IMG/VR virus record: IMGVR_UViG_2585427792_000017
Origin: a virus
Taxonomy: Duplodnaviria > Heunggongvirae > Uroviricota > Caudoviricetes
Length of the DNA: 7,149 nucleotides
Strand: one strand, 5' to 3'
The notes under the pieces were generated by a model. That model made no database searches. It was not told the DNA's origin and saw only the letters and a list, made by a program, of their open reading frames with translations. Positions 1,516-7,149 of the stretch are shown piece after piece; position 1 is the stretch's first letter, and each line of letters opens with the position of its first letter. Made by a program: the position numbers and the translations under genes.

Positions 1516-1577
1516 GGTGTGGCCCCTTGTGTAGTAAGTTGTGAAAACTCACCATCCAGAGCTGCGAAACTGTGGGT

Positions 1578-1653
1578 GGCGAGACGTACGAGGTTCGCAG
1601 TACCGGCTACAAGAGATCCCGGCCCGACCGAAGTCGGCCCCGTACGCCCCGCC
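1578..1653 (-). ncRNA. Putative structured RNA element: 16-bp closing stem enclosing two hairpins, one with a C(UUCG)G tetraloop
   Basis: Arms 1578-1593 and 1638-1653 are inverted repeats. The three non-Watson-Crick positions are A-C on the + strand, which become G-U wobbles on the - strand RNA. Inner hairpins 1602-1623 (one further A-C/G-U position) and 1624-1637 (loop reads UUCG on the - strand). No credible ORF covers this region. Confidence 0.35.
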
Positions 1654-1693
1654 ATAATTCTGACGCGAAAAAAACGTGGCAATACAGTACGCA

Positions 1694-1715
1694 CAAAAAA
1701 ACCGCTGGCGCGGTT
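1694..1715 (-). terminator. Putative intrinsic terminator inside the early operon
   Basis: - strand reads AACCGC-GCCA-GCGGTT (6-bp stem, 4-nt loop) running into a U7 tract (about 1701..1695), 122 nt after the stop of the 99-aa gene. Confidence 0.4.
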
Positions 1716-1837
1716 GTGCGCTTGTGTAGTCAGCAGGCTGCGAAACCCGACACCCGTTTTGTGAGGTGCAGCGGAAATGTAACCTGACTGATTGCGGCAT
1801 GGCAAGCGGTTTTTTTGTGTGTGCATGTTCTGGTTTC

Positions 1838-2137: not shown

Positions 2138-2400
2138 GTTCTGGCTTCCTTCAGTAGCTGGTTAAACATGTGAGTAAGTGGATTGCTACACCCGAACGGC
2201 ATCGGGTTTACGTGGTAAGAAGCCTGGCCTCCAGTTTTGCGAGCGCGACCACCTGTGCTGCGGTTTGTTCTGATGACTAAGCCGCTGCGCCAAAGTCGGC
2301 GTAACTCAGCATTAATAGCTGTGGTTGGAGTATTCAGTGCTGCGGCGATCTCTCCGCCGCTACACCCCGGATGAGTAGCGATGTAGTCCAGAATGGTCAT
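2134..2400 (-). CDS. Hypothetical protein, 88 aa, probable winged helix-turn-helix DNA-binding fold
   Basis: ORF in track. Sequence ILDYIATHPGCSGGEIAAALNTPTTAINAELRRLWRSGLVIR followed by a basic, Gly-rich wing. ATGA start/stop overlap with the upstream 67-aa gene. Confidence 0.55.
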   Translation of the reverse strand: MTILDYIATHPGCSGGEIAAALNTPTTAINAELRRLWRSGLVIRTNRSTGGRARKTGGQASYHVNPMPFGCSNPLTHMFNQLLKEART

Positions 2401-2600
2401 CTGCGTGGCTCCTGTACCTGTCGGATAAGATTCACCCGCGCCACGTTGGTGGCGCAGAAGTAAGTGCCGTCAGTGAGGTAGATGTGGTGTGCATCCTTTT
2501 CCGAACGATGTTTGTCGATAGTGGTAATCAGGCGTTCGTCGACCTCGTATTCGCGCCCTCTGGAGGTAAAGCGAACGATGGGAAAATGCTTAATTGCCAT
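2397..2600 (-). CDS. Hypothetical early-operon protein, 67 aa
   Basis: ORF in track. ATG 2600..2598 preceded by AAGGGGG. Stop overlaps the start of the next gene. Confidence 0.55.
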   Translation of the reverse strand: MAIKHFPIVRFTSRGREYEVDERLITTIDKHRSEKDAHHIYLTDGTYFCATNVARVNLIRQVQEPRR

Positions 2601-2623
2601 TGCGCCCCCTTTGTCCAGTAACC

Positions 2624-2938
2624 CTATGCGTGAAATACGGCACGTTGCGCGTCATCAATGAATACAGCTTGAGATCGTTCTATCAGGCGGAGATTTGTCA
2701 GAAGCTCTGACTCTTTTGTGGGGTAAGGAGTGATCAGGTAGTTACCCTGCAACCCGGCGATAATGGTGTATCGCTGTAGCTCCGAGCCAATTGTGTAAAT
2801 AAGGCGTCCGGTGTTAGACAAATCCAGTCCGGTGACTGGTTGTGTTCTGAAAACCGCCATTTCTTTGCCCTGTTCCTCAATAATTTTGGCTGCTTCAGAG
2901 GTGGCTATTGCGATGGTCAGTGCGTAAAGCGCTGCCAT
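2624..2938 (-). CDS. Hypothetical early-operon protein, 104 aa
   Basis: ORF in track. ATG 2938..2936 has only a weak Shine-Dalgarno; a small upstream ORF ends 7 nt before it (see 2946-3032). Confidence 0.6.
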   Translation of the reverse strand: MAALYALTIAIATSEAAKIIEEQGKEMAVFRTQPVTGLDLSNTGRLIYTIGSELQRYTIIAGLQGNYLITPYPTKESELLTNLRLIERSQAVFIDDAQRAVFHA

Positions 2939-2945
2939 ATGTTGA

Positions 2946-3032
2946 TTATCTTTCTGGGCTGCCCTGGACAGCTTGTCTTGTCTGTGAAACTACTTTCAAT
3001 GCACTGATAATACCTTCTTCTTTTGCGTGCAT
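2946..3032 (-). CDS. Candidate 28-codon leader ORF (MHAKEEGIISALKVVSQTRQAVQGSPER)
   Basis: Below the 60-aa cutoff of the track. ATG 3032..3030 with GGAG 8 nt upstream; TAA 2948..2946 ends 7 nt before the ATG of the SD-poor 104-aa gene. Confidence 0.25.
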   Translation of the reverse strand: MHAKEEGIISALKVVSQTRQAVQGSPER

Positions 3033-3119
3033 TTTTGTATCTCCGTTATTTGCGTGTGCGAATACCTCCGTTAATGCGGATAGTTTTCAGGTTTTCTTAT
3101 TTAATTTGATGTTTTATTT

Positions 3120-3239
3120 GTATCGTTATTCACCAGTGAAAAAACGTTCAATCTTTTTTACTGAATGAATAATTCGCATAATTCCAATGGCGCAGGCCAC
3201 CGAAATAATCAGAACAAGCCATGAGATAAATATACTCAT
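3120..3239 (-). CDS. Candidate 39-aa single-pass membrane peptide (MSIFISWLVLIISVACAIGIMRIIHSVKKIERFFTGE)
   Basis: Below the track cutoff. ATG 3239..3237 overlaps the TGA 3238..3236 of the upstream 80-aa gene (ATGA). About 20 hydrophobic residues followed by a basic tail. Translated by hand from the reverse complement. Confidence 0.35.
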
Positions 3240-3478
3240 GCGATATTCCCCAGCTTATACGGTTCAATGTGTTCCCCGCATTCTGCGGCACAGATCAGCT
3301 CGGAAAGTTCGTTAAGTGCATCCAGATCATCAGCGTAAAAAGCGACGTCATACAAACTCCGGATTGCCCTGGTCAATGAGTCACGGGCTGCACGTTCAGC
3401 ATGAGCGCCTGATGCACTTAAGCGAAAATAAAATCGTTCAAGTGCTTTGTTAATGAGAGTTTTATATTCTTTGCCCAT
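3236..3478 (-). CDS. Hypothetical early-operon protein, 80 aa
   Basis: ORF in track. ATG 3478..3476 preceded by AGGG, 11 nt after the stop of the upstream gene. Confidence 0.6.
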   Translation of the reverse strand: MGKEYKTLINKALERFYFRLSASGAHAERAARDSLTRAIRSLYDVAFYADDLDALNELSELICAAECGEHIEPYKLGNIA

Positions 3479-3778: not shown

Positions 3779-4120
3779 TTATAAATCAGCCTGTTTAATA
3801 AAACTTTGCCCGCGAAGCAGACGATCAACCGTGCGAAGTGCTTCGTATAATGTGAAATCCTGCCCGAACTGATTGTCACCACAGCTCAATGCAAAAATGC
3901 GGTTTCCGGTAAACGGATTGCGTGGGCATTTGTGGATCACGATTCCAGCTTTCTCAATCAGCCAGGCGTGCTCGCCGATTTGTTTTACTGGGTAGCCATC
4001 CGGCGTTGCGTGTGTATCACTCAGGCTGTAGCGGATGTTACTGCGTGATGCACTGGTAGCGAAACGGTTAGCGTGGCGTTCAGCACCATTACGAAAGCGT
4101 GAATTACGTTGCTGTTTCAT
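3779..4120 (-). CDS. Hypothetical early-operon protein, 113 aa, basic N-terminus
   Basis: ORF in track. ATG 4120..4118, 29 nt after the stop of the 69-aa gene. Confidence 0.6.
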   Translation of the reverse strand: MKQQRNSRFRNGAERHANRFATSASRSNIRYSLSDTHATPDGYPVKQIGEHAWLIEKAGIVIHKCPRNPFTGNRIFALSCGDNQFGQDFTLYEALRTVDRLLRGQSFIKQADL

Positions 4121-4149: not shown

Positions 4150-4359
4150 CTACAGTCTGATGTTTCTTGTAAGTTTAAAAATTACTTCGGCCATAACTTC
4201 ACTAATTACTCCAGTATCCCGGTTGGTCAGTGCCACTTCCCATGCGGCTTTTGCTCGTGTAGGGTCTAGCCGACCTGATTTTTGTTGTGTAATGATGGAA
4301 CGTAAATCGTCATATAGTTCTTTTATGGCTGTTTCTTTTGTCTGTGTGAGGTTATCCAT
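4150..4359 (-). CDS. Hypothetical protein, 69 aa, in the AT-rich island
   Basis: ORF in track. ATG 4359..4357 preceded by AAGGTG with 5-nt spacing. Its start codon overlaps the start codon of the divergent + strand gene by 2 nt. Confidence 0.5.
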   Translation of the reverse strand: MDNLTQTKETAIKELYDDLRSIITQQKSGRLDPTRAKAAWEVALTNRDTGVISEVMAEVIFKLTRNIRL

Positions 4360-4798
4360 GGCAACACCTTCAAATATTGATGTTTTTAATGAAACTGTTG
4401 GTAAAACTTTTGCGTTTCTTTATGAGTCATTTCCCCGAAAAGTAACCATTGATGTTTGTGCTTTAACCGGTGTTTCCGCTCCAACGTTTGAAGAGAAGGA
4501 CCCGGCGGTCAGAAAGCAAAAACATGAAGCTCTTGTTCTTCGTTATTACTCCATTGAGTGGCTTATTGCTGCTGGTTATGTATCTGCTGATGCTGTTCCT
4601 TTTGAAAGTTTCGATAAGGCGGTACTTACGGCTAAAGGACTTGAATTATTGAAACTTGATCCAGAGTCACTTAAGCAATCGCTTGGAGATAAACTTGTCG
4701 ATGCAACCAAGAGTGGGGCGATAGATGCAATAAAAAGCACCGCCTCATCTGCACTTACTACAGGTATCTCCTTTGCTTTTAAACACTTGTTTGGCTAA
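4358..4798 (+). CDS. Hypothetical protein, 146 aa, opposite-strand cargo gene; function unknown
   Basis: The track ORF starts at TTG 4109. The credible start is ATG 4358 (MATPSNIDVF...) with GAGGT 5 nt upstream; stop TAA 4796-4798. AT-rich relative to flanks. C-terminus ends in a hydrophobic tail (TTGISFAFKHLFG). Confidence 0.6.
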   Translation: MATPSNIDVFNETVGKTFAFLYESFPRKVTIDVCALTGVSAPTFEEKDPAVRKQKHEALVLRYYSIEWLIAAGYVSADAVPFESFDKAVLTAKGLELLKLDPESLKQSLGDKLVDATKSGAIDAIKSTASSALTTGISFAFKHLFG

Positions 4799-4842
4799 TC
4801 GATTGATGCATCCTACATAACGTCCATTTTTGAAGTATCTAC

Positions 4843-4880
4843 GGCGAAACCTCATGTGATGGGGTTCGCTGTTTTGCTGT
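4843..4880 (+). terminator. Putative terminator between convergent genes
   Basis: Imperfect hairpin GCGAAACC / GGTTCGC (7 bp with one bulged A, 11-nt loop) followed by a T-rich tract TGTTTTGCTGT, 45 nt after the stop of the 146-aa gene. Confidence 0.35.
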
Positions 4881-4902
4881 TGCTTATTCATTTTTTGTGT
4901 CT

Positions 4903-5109
4903 CTACCCAATGAGCCAAATAACAAACGCTATGAGCACCGCGCCAATAGTGGTCGGAAAAAGACCTCTTGTATAGGCGGCGAGGTAATGAACGTTGAGAA
5001 CAATAAAGCGCTCTTTTTGTCCTGTTAGCTTGTTAAGCAGATAAATCGCTATTACACCCACTTCCAGGTACACAAAGCTCAAAATGGCGCTGATGATATT
5101 GCTGGTCAT
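4903..5109 (-). CDS. Small membrane protein, 68 aa, two predicted transmembrane helices
   Basis: C-terminal part of track ORF 4903..5358, taken from ATG 5109..5107, 10 nt after the cox TAA: MTSNIISAILSFVYLEVGVIAIYLL...LFPTTIGAVLIAFVIWLIG. No Shine-Dalgarno, only an A-rich leader. The upstream 83 codons of the track ORF overlap cox in another frame and look non-protein-like. Confidence 0.45.
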   Translation of the reverse strand: MTSNIISAILSFVYLEVGVIAIYLLNKLTGQKERFIVLNVHYLAAYTRGLFPTTIGAVLIAFVIWLIG

Positions 5110-5119
5110 TTTTGTGTGT

Positions 5120-5641
5120 TTAGTTGCCTTCGCTGCTTTTGAGTCGTTCCAGCTTTGAGCTTCTACCCATATAAACCCGTTTTCCGTTAACGGTCTGGCA
5201 GTCTTCTTTGTCGGCTGGAGAGAACTTTCTTTTCTGGCGGTCATACGTCCAGTAACTTTTCCAGTTGTGCCATTCTGGGGGCTCGTGCTCTGGTAGCTCA
5301 TCAGCCAACTTGTCCCACTCTTTGGCGTTAAACCACCATACTCCGTCTGAGTTTTCATCTTCCGGGTTTGTGCGCGTCTTGTGTCCCGGCATTTGACCGC
5401 GATGAATGGCTACGCGCAGTGCAGATTTTGTTAGCCCAATATATGCCGCGCCTTTTTCCAGAGAGCAAAGCCCGGCGATCGGACCATCCAGCCGCAAAGT
5501 CGCTCCTTTTTTGTAGGAACGCTTTTTCTTGTTTTCTTCGTGCTCGTCGTCGTTGGCGGCATCAATGGATCCGCTGAGTGCGTCACTTTCCTGAAGTGGT
5601 TGGTGGTCAGATAACTCTTTATCGGCAATGAAGTCCCGCAT
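5120..5641 (-). CDS. cox: Cox-like excisionase/transcriptional regulator, 173 aa, with N- and C-terminal extensions
   Basis: ATG 5641..5639 with GAGG 7 nt upstream. The core (LEKGAAYIGLTKSALRVAIHRGQMPGHK...DGVWWFNAKEW) resembles the HTH and following region of P2 Cox as I recall it. It is the first gene of the operon divergent from C. Confidence 0.65.
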   Translation of the reverse strand: MRDFIADKELSDHQPLQESDALSGSIDAANDDEHEENKKKRSYKKGATLRLDGPIAGLCSLEKGAAYIGLTKSALRVAIHRGQMPGHKTRTNPEDENSDGVWWFNAKEWDKLADELPEHEPPEWHNWKSYWTYDRQKRKFSPADKEDCQTVNGKRVYMGRSSKLERLKSSEGN

Positions 5642-5660: not shown

Positions 5661-5700
5661 GTGCGCTTGTTGCGCCTTGTGATGGTTTGTTTTGGCTTGT
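5661..5700. repeat. Four direct repeats with 10-bp periodicity, each ending in TTGT
   Basis: GTGCGCTTGT / TGCGCCTTGT / GATGGTTTGT / TTTGGCTTGT, at 5661-5670, 5671-5680, 5681-5690, 5691-5700. Helical phasing suggests a protein array on one face of the DNA. Confidence 0.4.
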
Positions 5701-5724
5701 AAAGATAACCAAAAGGTTATCTTT
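5701..5724. promoter_or_regulatory. Candidate repressor operator: perfect 10-bp inverted repeat with 4-bp spacer
   Basis: AAAGATAACC-AAAA-GGTTATCTTT. Further GGTTATCTT copy at 5748-5756 (overlapping the C start codon) and a related TGTTATCCT at 5643-5651 next to the cox start. Confidence 0.45.
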
Positions 5725-5734
5725 GTGCGAGAGG

Positions 5735-5761
5735 TTAATACTCAAATGGTTATCTTGTCAA
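5735..5761 (-). promoter_or_regulatory. Candidate early promoter Pe (- strand)
   Basis: Perfect -35 TTGACA (reverse complement of 5756-5761) and -10-like TATTAA (reverse complement of 5735-5740). The spacer is only 15 bp, so this is tentative. The -35 overlaps one GGTTATCTT half-site and the palindrome lies just downstream. Confidence 0.3.
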
Positions 5762-6087
5762 TAGACTACGCAAAAAAGTTACGTCAGATACGTAAGGCGG
5801 AAGGGTTAACACAAAAGCAGTTTGCGGATATTACTGGGTTGTCTTTGGCAACCATAAGGAATTACGAATCGGGGCAAAAGAACGCTAGAGCAAAAATCGT
5901 TGAGGCGGTTCTGCAAGTCGATCGCTTTGAAAAATACATGCTGTGGCTAATAAAAGATAAGACGCTACCTGTCGCCGGGCAGATTGCTCCGGCTCTCTCT
6001 CTTGATGGATCTATTCAGTCGGAGGGCGATCAGGTTTCAATCGGTATTACCCAAAAATCACCCCGATCAGGCCGCAATGTTGGCTGA
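5746..6087 (+). CDS. C: Immunity repressor C (P2 C family), 113 aa
   Basis: The track ORF starts at TTG 5692. ATG 5746 (MVILSIDYAKKLRQIRKAEGLTQKQFADITGLSLATIRNYESGQ...GQIAPALS) aligns by eye with P2 C (HTH, YESG, GQIAPAL). GAGAGG lies 11 nt upstream. Confidence 0.75.
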   Translation: MVILSIDYAKKLRQIRKAEGLTQKQFADITGLSLATIRNYESGQKNARAKIVEAVLQVDRFEKYMLWLIKDKTLPVAGQIAPALSLDGSIQSEGDQVSIGITQKSPRSGRNVG

Positions 6088-6156
6088 CTCTACACATTGA
6101 GCGAATTACATATCGCAAGGAGTGTTTAGTTAATTTATCCGTTGGAGGGGCTAATC

Positions 6157-7149
6157 ATGTCGATTAAGCAACTCAAAGACGGACGTTATCAGGTCGATGT
6201 CAGACCGCAGGGGGCGGAAGGAAAGCGGATTCGAAAAATCTTTGCCCTGAAATCAAAGGCTCAGGAGTTTGAGAAGTATGTGTTACAGAACTTTCATGAC
6301 AAGCCATGGCAGGCTAAGCCAGCTGATCAGCGGCGATTATCAGAGCTGCTTGATGCGTGGTGGATGCTTGATGGGCGTAATCAGGCTTACGGGGATAGCT
6401 ACAGGGTTAGGCTAGGGAAGGTTGTTCGTGAAATGGGAGATCCTCGCGCCAGTCAGATGACGCGAAAATTTATGCTTGAATATCGGTCAGAGAAATTACA
6501 GGCCGGATTAATGCCGTCCAGTATTAATCGTGACTTATGCGTACTGTCTACCATGTTCACGGTGCTGATTGAAGCTGAGGTCTTTCACAACGCGAACCCT
6601 GTACGCGGTATACGAAAACTGAAAGTTCAGAACACAGAGATGGCCTTTCTTTCTGATGATGAGATTGAACGGCTTCTTGAGCGACTGGAGGGTGATGCGC
6701 GTCGTGTTGCCATTCTGTGTCTTTCTACTGGTGCCCGATGGAGTGAAGCATCGGAACTACGTGGAGAGCATATCGTTGGCAACCGGGTGACGTTCTTTAA
6801 CACCAAAAACGGAAAATCCCGTTCGGTTCCTGTGGCGGATTCGGTCGTGCCTCTGATTAAAACCCGTCGAACGGGGTTATTGTATCAGGTTGATTATCTG
6901 AAGTTCCGGGAGATTCTTCAGGAGGTGAAACCGGATTTGCCGAAGGGGCAGGCTACGCATGTCATGCGTCATACATTTGCCACACACTTTATGATGAATG
7001 GCGGAAATATTGTTACGTTGCAACGAATCCTGGGGCACGCAACGATTCAGCAAACAATGACGTACGCTCATTTTTCGCCGGACTTTTTACTGGACGCGAT
7101 CAACTTTAATCCGCTGGCTGAAAGTGTCCATAAACTGTCCATCGATTAG
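6157..7149 (+). CDS. int: Tyrosine recombinase, P2-type integrase, 330 aa
   Basis: The track ORF starts at TTG 6142. ATG 6157 has GGAGG 8 nt upstream. MSIKQLKDGRYQVDVRPQG..., TGARWSE, HVMRHTFATHF and TMTYAHF match the P2 Int pattern including the catalytic R, H-x-x-R and Y. Stop TAG 7147-7149. Confidence 0.9.
   Translation: MSIKQLKDGRYQVDVRPQGAEGKRIRKIFALKSKAQEFEKYVLQNFHDKPWQAKPADQRRLSELLDAWWMLDGRNQAYGDSYRVRLGKVVREMGDPRASQMTRKFMLEYRSEKLQAGLMPSSINRDLCVLSTMFTVLIEAEVFHNANPVRGIRKLKVQNTEMAFLSDDEIERLLERLEGDARRVAILCLSTGARWSEASELRGEHIVGNRVTFFNTKNGKSRSVPVADSVVPLIKTRRTGLLYQVDYLKFREILQEVKPDLPKGQATHVMRHTFATHFMMNGGNIVTLQRILGHATIQQTMTYAHFSPDFLLDAINFNPLAESVHKLSID

Follow-up and report, generated by a model that had tools for sequence, protein, structure and literature searches.

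What does the AT-rich gap in the early operon of a P2-like prophage contain, and does it hold two small genes of its own? The gap spans positions 2939–3239 of the IMG/VR virus record IMGVR_UViG_2585427792_000017, a stretch of 7,149 nucleotides (nt) of tailed-phage DNA (Caudoviricetes) which was analysed as a whole and is called the window here. A preliminary description, made from the letters of the window, had placed two unlisted small open reading frames (ORFs) in the gap, between a gene of 80 amino acids (aa) and one of 104 aa: a hydrophobic peptide of 39 aa, likened to small membrane toxins or holin-like peptides, and a 28-codon ORF, taken for a leader peptide coupled to the 104-aa gene, with a duplicated octamer between them. 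We arrive at a different account, to which we assign a probability of roughly 85%. The first ORF would be a real small membrane-protein gene, followed by a spacer with a small hairpin, while the second ORF and the 104-aa ORF would be the two pieces of one frameshifted gene in a variable slot. The features on which this account is built are the following.

3236–3478, minus strand: DUF4754 gene, 80 aa (Pfam PF15946, E 2.8e-54; so annotated in relatives)
3126–3239, minus strand: small membrane protein gene, 37 aa, MSIFISWLVLIISVACAIGIMRIIHSVKKIERFFTGE (RefSeq and P88 annotation, conservation)
3033–3125, minus strand: AT-rich spacer of 93 nt, 33% GC, 5' untranslated region of the slot gene (composition)
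3067–3080, minus strand: small hairpin of 5 bp, consensus UCCGC-AUUC-GCGGA (conservation, RNAalifold)
2946–3032, minus strand: 28-codon ORF, read as the 5' piece of a phrog_9338 gene disrupted by a frameshift (alignments, three-frame translation)
Between 2980 and 2979, minus strand: frame break with 2 nt missing (alignment against both parental allele types)
2624–2938, minus strand: 104-aa ORF, read as the 3' piece of that gene, with the internal Met33 as its first codon (phrog_9338, E 1.1e-54)

The start codon of the small gene overlaps the TGA of DUF4754 by 4 nt as ATGA, and a Shine-Dalgarno (SD)-like sequence, GGGGA/GGGAG, is located 8 nt upstream of this ATG. The overlap and the hydrophobicity reported earlier were borne out, but not the length, as the ORF at 3126–3239 comprises 37 codons instead of 39. 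Neither is it unlisted, since RefSeq (WP_000021656.1, WP_000021655.1) and GenBank phage records already annotate it, and the record of phage vB_EcoM-569R5 calls it a 'putative membrane protein'. The 'membrane protein' gp07 of P88 (YP_009113050.1) is identical in sequence (100% by tblastn), also follows DUF4754 with a 4-nt overlap and differs in nothing, i.e. it is the same gene. At least 1000 contigs carry the exact 37-aa peptide, a variant of which is listed in UniRef as 'Prophage membrane protein'. In-frame conservation in homologous prophages, by which the preliminary description had proposed to judge both of its ORFs, is observed for this one throughout. A first set of 89 loci was made up of 80 IMG/VR contigs, E. 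coli genomes, phages and contigs labelled E. albertii and Vagococcus, besides the window and the contig to which it belongs. The small ORF follows DUF4754 in all 89, with 37 aa in 82 and 45 aa in 7 of them. Five further, more divergent loci also keep the ORF and the ATGA overlap, so that the frame is open in 94 of 94 readable loci. Both are still present where DUF4754 is only 78–79% identical, and among phage records the ORF occurs in P88-like phages only, invariably adjoining DUF4754.

The substitutions in this ORF are those of a translated sequence. Over 32 distinct intact versions the variable sites are distributed 10/4/15 over the three codon positions, 18 of 37 variant types are synonymous (expected: 22%), and the mean ratio of nonsynonymous to synonymous substitution rates (dN/dS) amounts to 0.23 (496 pairs), with the other two frames showing fewer synonymous changes and having acquired stops. 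In the most divergent allele, 26 of 111 nt (24%) and only 8 of 37 residues are changed, with differences of 7/3/16 by codon position, dN of 0.15, dS of 1.07 and dN/dS of 0.14, similar to DUF4754 itself in the same comparison (dN 0.15, dS 1.58, dN/dS 0.09). The ATGA overlap and the SD-like sequence persist at this 24% nucleotide divergence. On these comparative grounds, the small ORF is evidently a genuine, conserved protein-coding gene under purifying selection which had already been annotated, and judging by the ATGA overlap it is translationally coupled to DUF4754.

Several records of this gene pair deviate from the common form. In the 7 of 89 loci with 45 aa (e.g. L035, L036, L061, L076, L077, L079), a T6 run near ~3140–3146 is one base shorter, turning the tail ...ERFFTGE into ...ERFSL(V/M/A)N..., and this form is either a homopolymer sequencing error or a real length variant. 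In the record of Escherichia phage 503458 (L089, NC_049341.1), indels which look like sequencing errors break DUF4754 (70 aa, altered tail) as well as the small ORF. We had considered this phage as a source of a distant homologue of the peptide and rejected it, because several indels in both genes make the record uninformative. Database proteins named DUF4754 with lengths of 103–116 aa (P0101, P0104, P0116, P0117 and others) also occur and may be read-through fusions with the 37-aa ORF via single-base indels at the ATGA. The contig labelled Vagococcus sp. WN89Y (L007, NZ_JBQPOM010000071.1) carries an E. coli-type prophage region with a 98% identical DUF4754, and its label probably reflects assembly contamination or mislabelling.

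The two ORFs at the other end of the gap are best described together. The geometry given for the 28-codon ORF at 2946–3032 on the minus strand is accurate, with GGAG 8 nt upstream of its ATG and 7 nt separating its stop from the start codon of the 104-aa ORF. Its codons 1–18 (MHAKEEGIISALKVVSQT) constitute the conserved N-terminus of the phrog_9338 family, and codons 19–28 are out of frame and end at a TAA. In three-frame translation the +1 frame continues with QDKLSRAAQKDNQHMAALYAL, the sequence of the intact 138-aa allele, and upstream of the 104-aa ATG it reads QDKLSRAAQKDNQHM, identical to the protein of locus L004. The 104-aa ORF covers only positions 33–138 of the 138 profile positions of phrog_9338, whereas intact relatives cover 1–138. 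In related prophages, a single coding sequence of 411 or 417 nt, which opens at the same ATG, replaces both ORFs. Among the 37 entries bearing this gene, the cassette, 34 are intact, and the three broken ones are a copy from O121 and the copy of the window, which is entered a second time with its own contig L006; an uninterrupted ORF of 136–138 aa is thus found in 34 of 35 other loci. As a separate in-frame unit, the 28-codon ORF is consequently not conserved in related prophages, which is the finding that the preliminary description had named as speaking against it. The 28-codon ORF exists only because of the 2-nt frame break, and the 104-aa ORF appears poor in SD sequence because its ATG is an internal Met codon and not the native start. 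Most of the 85 database cluster representatives have 136 aa, and the N-terminal motif M[NH]AKE[EK]GI..LK is conserved in the family.

In comparison to intact examples such as WP_001378016.1 and WP_000991914.1, the copy in the window is a mosaic. From segment-wise mismatch counts, it is L001-like at 3141–2995, identical to the L004 type at 2966–2877, identical to the L001 type at 2846–2763 and again identical to the L004 type at 2702–2600, which amounts to three crossovers with identical blocks of 80–100 nt, and the frame break resides inside the first crossover zone (2994–2967). The exact 104-aa product was found on one contig only, the window's own. Against the 97-nt query across the break, every top match listed from complete E. 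coli genomes extends over 99 nt, and the shortened version is absent among these listed matches. A programmed ribosomal frameshift, for which the two-frame arrangement and a slippery site would have to recur in relatives, is not indicated, as the relatives are single-frame and the break is unique to the window's contig. We therefore regard the copy in the window, on the strength of these alignments, as a disrupted member of phrog_9338, be it termed a pseudogene or a split gene. In an AlphaFold (AF2) model of phrog_9338 with a predicted local distance difference test score (pLDDT) of 77.6, helices 3–28 and 32–64 form a hairpin, followed by a small beta domain; according to this model, truncation at Met33 removes helix 1 (residues 3–28). 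A Foldseek search with the model against PDB and BFVD returned no match with E <= 1e-3, and for the C-terminal half only weak resemblances to SH3/Tudor/chromo-like barrels were obtained. The O121 copy (L005 1259–1676, E. coli O121 RM8352; other O121 genomes too) contains one additional A within an A-run close to codon 6 and is flagged 'frameshifted' by RefSeq, a frameshift which is independent of the one in the window.

A number of points weigh against our account. In Pfam, PHROGs, NCBIfam, PADLOC and PDB sequences, neither the peptide nor DUF4754 nor phrog_9338 has a homologue of known function. The peptide family is narrow, comprising P88-like phages of Escherichia, Shigella, Citrobacter and Salmonella with at least 78% identity, and the estimates of selection therefore rest on limited divergence. 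Furthermore, the window matches exactly contig JOSH01000193.1 of GCA_000713615.1 (E. coli 1-392-07_S4_C3), which is a draft assembly, so that the missing 2 nt could reflect a mistake in assembly or sequencing and the strain could carry an intact gene of 136–138 aa. Indel errors do occur in other public records of this phage group, phage 503458 being an example. However, the gap lies outside any homopolymer and coincides with an allele recombination junction, and the independent frameshift of the same gene in O121 indicates that decay of this accessory gene does happen. We consider an error in the assembly unlikely, though far from negligible, and retain the frameshifted gene as the preferred reading of the two ORFs.

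For the small gene, the question is what kind of membrane peptide it encodes. With a mean Kyte-Doolittle hydropathy of 2.5 over residues 2–21 and a basic C-terminal tail, the peptide is short and consists of a strongly hydrophobic helix followed by basic residues. Such a composition is common to Hok, Ldr and TisB-type toxins and to holin C-termini, and the position in an early lytic operon would tolerate a host-damaging product. A type I-like membrane-damaging toxin or a holin/antiholin-like lysis factor was therefore weighed. Type I toxins (Hok, Ldr, TisB, Ibs, ShoB) are indeed of similar size, with a single hydrophobic helix and a charged tail. In contrast to these, the window peptide possesses no separate promoter or structured leader, no antisense RNA partner was detected for it, no sequence-family match was found, and its gene is coupled by translation within a phage operon. 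Its start overlaps the DUF4754 stop inside the operon in every locus, leaving no stand-alone locus, and no minus-strand promoter-like site was found within the 3' end of DUF4754 upstream of the small ORF. Over 3100–3260, neither an Rfam family nor a plus-strand promoter-like site was observed, in scans which may miss an undescribed RNA. Searches of Pfam, PHROGs, NCBIfam, PADLOC and PDB sequences gave no match for the peptide. As to a holin, lysis genes are not among the annotated neighbours, neither in the window nor in related loci. The neighbours are instead DUF4761, DUF4754, phrog_9338, a MarR-like regulator and a derepression protein, i.e. an early operon, and characterised holins are longer than 37 residues with one transmembrane segment. 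As far as it can be judged from sequence, the peptide fits the defining anatomy of neither class, and we regard a toxin or holin as improbable.

Between the small gene and the slot gene, the spacer proved to be as AT-rich as had been described, with exactly 17 G+C in 3061–3120 and no minus-strand ORF above 60 aa anywhere in the gap, and 2939–3239 has a GC content of 36%, the window as a whole one of 49%. Across loci, the spacer is conserved irrespective of the gene behind it. It is largely unstructured save for the hairpin, with a z-score of -0.52 for the fold of the whole spacer, and no minus-strand promoter-like or terminator-like site was found in it. Rfam, searched over the whole window and permissively over 2900–3280, gave no match in the gap. 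The hairpin, the only structured element, recurs in all P88-like spacers (homologous sites in L001–L094), again irrespective of the slot gene. Its pair cells are paired in 99.2% of cases over 49 distinct spacers, compared to 33–60% in slid controls, RNAalifold recovers it at -7.6 kcal/mol, and the most divergent allele keeps the stem with the loop ACCC. The closing pair changes from C-G to U-A in 14 rows, which is probably only one covariation event, and two one-sided changes give G·U on the operon strand. The hairpin of the window itself reads UCCGC-AUUA-ACGGA, with a C·A mismatch as closing pair.

The duplicated motif turned out to be part of this arrangement. As had been noticed, there are two copies of the octamer TAACGGAG; they are the only ones in the whole window, and both are located on the minus strand. 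The positions given, however, were off by 3–4 nt and the spacing of 22 nt was not confirmed, the copies being 25 nt apart from start to start with 17 nt between them.

3041–3048, minus strand: proximal TAACGGAG; its GGAG is the SD sequence of phrog_9338, 8 nt before the ATG at 3032–3030
3066–3073, minus strand: distal TAACGGAG; loop end and 3' arm of the hairpin
3022–3073, minus strand: imperfect 25–27-nt tandem duplication of the translation-initiation region (repeat families D1, D3)

A second octamer, CACGCAAA, is found as the reverse complement of 3022–3029 and 3049–3056, 27 nt apart and interleaved with TAACGGAG. One octamer repeated within 40 nt is seen in 17% of dinucleotide shuffles of the region, while an interleaved pair of octamers repeating after 25 and 27 nt appears in only 0.1% of 5000 shuffles, and it is due to the rarity of the interleaved pair that we take the tandem duplication to be genuine. 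Unit 1 is TAACGGAGGTATTCGCACACGCAAA (3073–3049), which has no start codon, and unit 2 is TAACGGAGATACAAAAATGCACGCAAA (3048–3022), which carries the SD sequence, the ATG and codons 2–3. Tandem Repeats Finder reported no array in 2900–3300, the duplication being too short and imperfect for it. In 58 of 88 related spacers, the distal copy has GCGGAG rather than AACGGAG (51 of them being TCGCGGAG). Since only CGGAG is common to both copies, the exact duplication of the octamer is allele-specific, and the presence of CGGAG in both the hairpin arm and the SD sequence explains why a duplicated motif was perceived. A pairing of the 5' arm of the hairpin with the true SD sequence instead was tried and rejected, as it is not conserved between allele types.

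The gene behind this module is exchangeable. We compared 2600–3049 of the window with loci L003, L008, L015, L040, L090 and L092. phrog_9338 (136–138 aa, 37 entries) is optional, and in about 50 loci the slot is empty and the MAIK gene follows the small ORF after 85–87 nt. Other occupants of the slot are a 137-aa gene (MNAKDTV...), a 92-aa gene (MCSNEK...) and an insert of ~265 nt (MLRTNQK...). At least four different genes were seen in this slot, all of them behind the same hairpin/SD module. Upstream of different slot genes, (A)ACGGAG or ACGAGG is present at the same site, with AGGAGG in MAIK-type loci, and the distance from the CGGAG of the hairpin to the SD sequence is 25 nt before the different slot genes examined and 21 nt in MAIK-type loci.

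On the operon strand, the hairpin is followed by GGUAUUCGC and not by a U tract, and hence it is not a terminator there. On the opposite, plus strand, a pattern scan of the window and of three other allele types reads the hairpin and its T-rich tail as terminator-like, which raised the question whether it ends an antisense RNA of ~75 nt repressing translation of the cassette gene. Such an RNA would start near 3018 from a promoter in the first cassette codons and would cover both copies of TAACGGAG and the start codon. In its favour, a sigma-70-like match is present at the homologous plus-strand site in three cassette alleles, 52–55 nt upstream of the hairpin, and the variant closing pair of the window would be a U·G wobble on the plus strand compared to C·A on the minus strand. 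For the two other hairpin variants the reverse applies, a G·U pair on the minus strand corresponding to A·C on the plus strand. When the segment from the hairpin to codon 30 was compared on the plus strand in 46 distinct versions to 300 synonymous recodings each, the promoter-like scores were no better than those of recodings of the same coding sequence (p = 0.05–0.46; p = 0.05–0.82 over the 46 versions), the number of promoter-like sites equalled the expectation from shuffles, and cassette-less phages keep the hairpin without a promoter-like site. As the scores are not unusual compared to the recodings, the plus-strand promoter was dropped, leaving no supported promoter to feed the terminator-like element. 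The stem moreover has only 5 bp, and no Rfam match was obtained. We consider the antisense RNA highly doubtful. The hairpin might contribute to the processing or stability of the mRNA, be a palindrome to which a protein binds, or insulate against transcription from the opposite strand.

That the 37-codon ORF is conserved by a constraint on DNA or RNA without being translated could be argued from its shortness and the lack of a known family, but is very hard to reconcile with changes concentrated at third codon positions, dN/dS of 0.14–0.23, a frame open in 94 of 94 loci where other frames gain stops, and an ATGA overlap and SD-like sequence retained at 24% divergence. Least credible of all is a 28-codon leader peptide which controls or couples an independently encoded, SD-poor 104-aa gene. 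With GGAG 8 nt ahead of its ATG and only 7 nt from its stop to the following start codon, termination-reinitiation is mechanistically conceivable, and a truncated product could arise that way by accident. However, the same ATG opens one continuous ORF in relatives, the split arrangement is confined to the window's contig, the 104-aa ORF lacks profile positions 1–32, which are partly encoded by the short ORF in another frame, and neither alternative terminator/antiterminator structures nor a minus-strand terminator-like site accompany the spacer with its fold z-score of -0.52. Leaders and attenuators of amino-acid operons such as pheL likewise have a short ORF with a good SD sequence just upstream of a longer ORF; compared to them, the short ORF of the window is not conserved as a unit, contains no regulatory codon run and is not associated with alternative terminator/antiterminator folds. 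The comparative data thus refute a leader as an evolved device, although accidental reinitiation 7 nt past the premature stop is possible. In locus L001, pheL happens to adjoin the integration site of this prophage.

We propose a model in which the early operon mRNA is translated through DUF4754 and ribosomes terminating at its TGA would restart at the overlapping ATG, aided by GGGGA 8 nt upstream, to yield a single-pass inner-membrane peptide of 37 residues. By the positive-inside rule, the short N-terminus would be located outside and the basic tail (R22, K28, K29, R32) in the cytoplasm. The early operon of P2-type phages is silenced in the lysogen by the immunity repressor C, and the peptide is therefore expected to be active in lytic development, where it would act on the host inner membrane with or alongside DUF4754. 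The A-rich spacer with its hairpin would then lead to the SD sequence of the slot gene, which in the window is a recombinant of two phrog_9338 alleles, presumably inactivated because 2 nt were lost where the alleles meet. Ribosomes starting at the native ATG would stop after 28 codons, with the longest remaining ORF starting at Met33. We attach little confidence to any particular biochemical function of the peptide, and a search of the literature on P88, DUF4754 and P2-like small membrane proteins yielded nothing on these genes. Tentatively, and with the odds clearly on the other side, DUF4754 and the peptide may form a two-part early effector pair, and/or the hairpin with the SD sequence may represent a standard 5' module and recombination boundary. 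If the former were true, a soluble protein would be delivered to or regulated at the inner membrane, and the pair might manipulate a host membrane function during the lytic phase. If the latter were true, the module would enable P88-like phages to exchange accessory genes at a single site.

In terms of novelty, these features were already annotated or amount to a routine pseudogene, and their importance is small and mainly a matter of annotation hygiene: an apparent leader peptide in front of an SD-poor gene can signal a frameshifted gene, which one comparison with relatives settles. The 37-aa peptide and DUF4754 are widespread and are reasonable low-cost targets in studies of small phage proteins. 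The exchange of accessory genes in P2-like phages is neatly illustrated by the variable slot and the conserved hairpin/SD module in front of it.

The surroundings place the gap in the early, cox-side operon on the minus strand of a prophage which, by its gene content and matches, is P88-like (Xuanwuvirus, P2 family). A 901-nt query around the gap matched 1357 of 5426 complete E. coli genomes, with 90–91% identity to prophages of many of them, and the same 901 nt are 84–94% identical to P88-like Peduoviridae (Xuanwuvirus) phages. Taking P88-type phages and prophages together, the interval shares 90–94% identity with them. The other genes of the window are arranged as follows.

6142–7149, plus strand: tyrosine integrase
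Within 5692–6087, plus strand: C-type repressor
5120–5641, minus strand: Cox
3779–4120, minus strand: DUF4761
Between DUF4761 and DUF4754, minus strand: 92-aa ORF
2397–2600, minus strand: 67-aa MAIK gene
Beyond the MAIK gene, minus strand: MarR-like winged helix-turn-helix gene, derepression protein (1285–1515) and start of the GpA replication gene

Two further regions of the window were noted. Upstream of the derepression protein gene (1285–1515) there is a gap of ~320 nt in which strong Rfam matches to C4 antisense RNA (1572–1659, minus strand, RF01695, 81 bits, E 3e-15) and isrK (1695–1769, minus strand, RF01394, 62 bits, E 9e-12) are located together with a sub-threshold match to the c4-a1b1 target site (1730–1782), a region which by these matches looks like a P1/P7-type C4 immunity RNA module within a P2-like prophage. 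Between cox and DUF4761, the window carries an insert at 4150–5110 that is missing from L001 and P88 and contains ORFs of 69 aa (4150–4359, minus strand), 146 aa (4358–4798, plus strand) and 68 aa (4903–5109, minus strand), the latter hydrophobic and resembling a protein with two transmembrane segments. With no match of these ORFs to Pfam above the cut-off and none in PADLOC, the insert looks like a moron.

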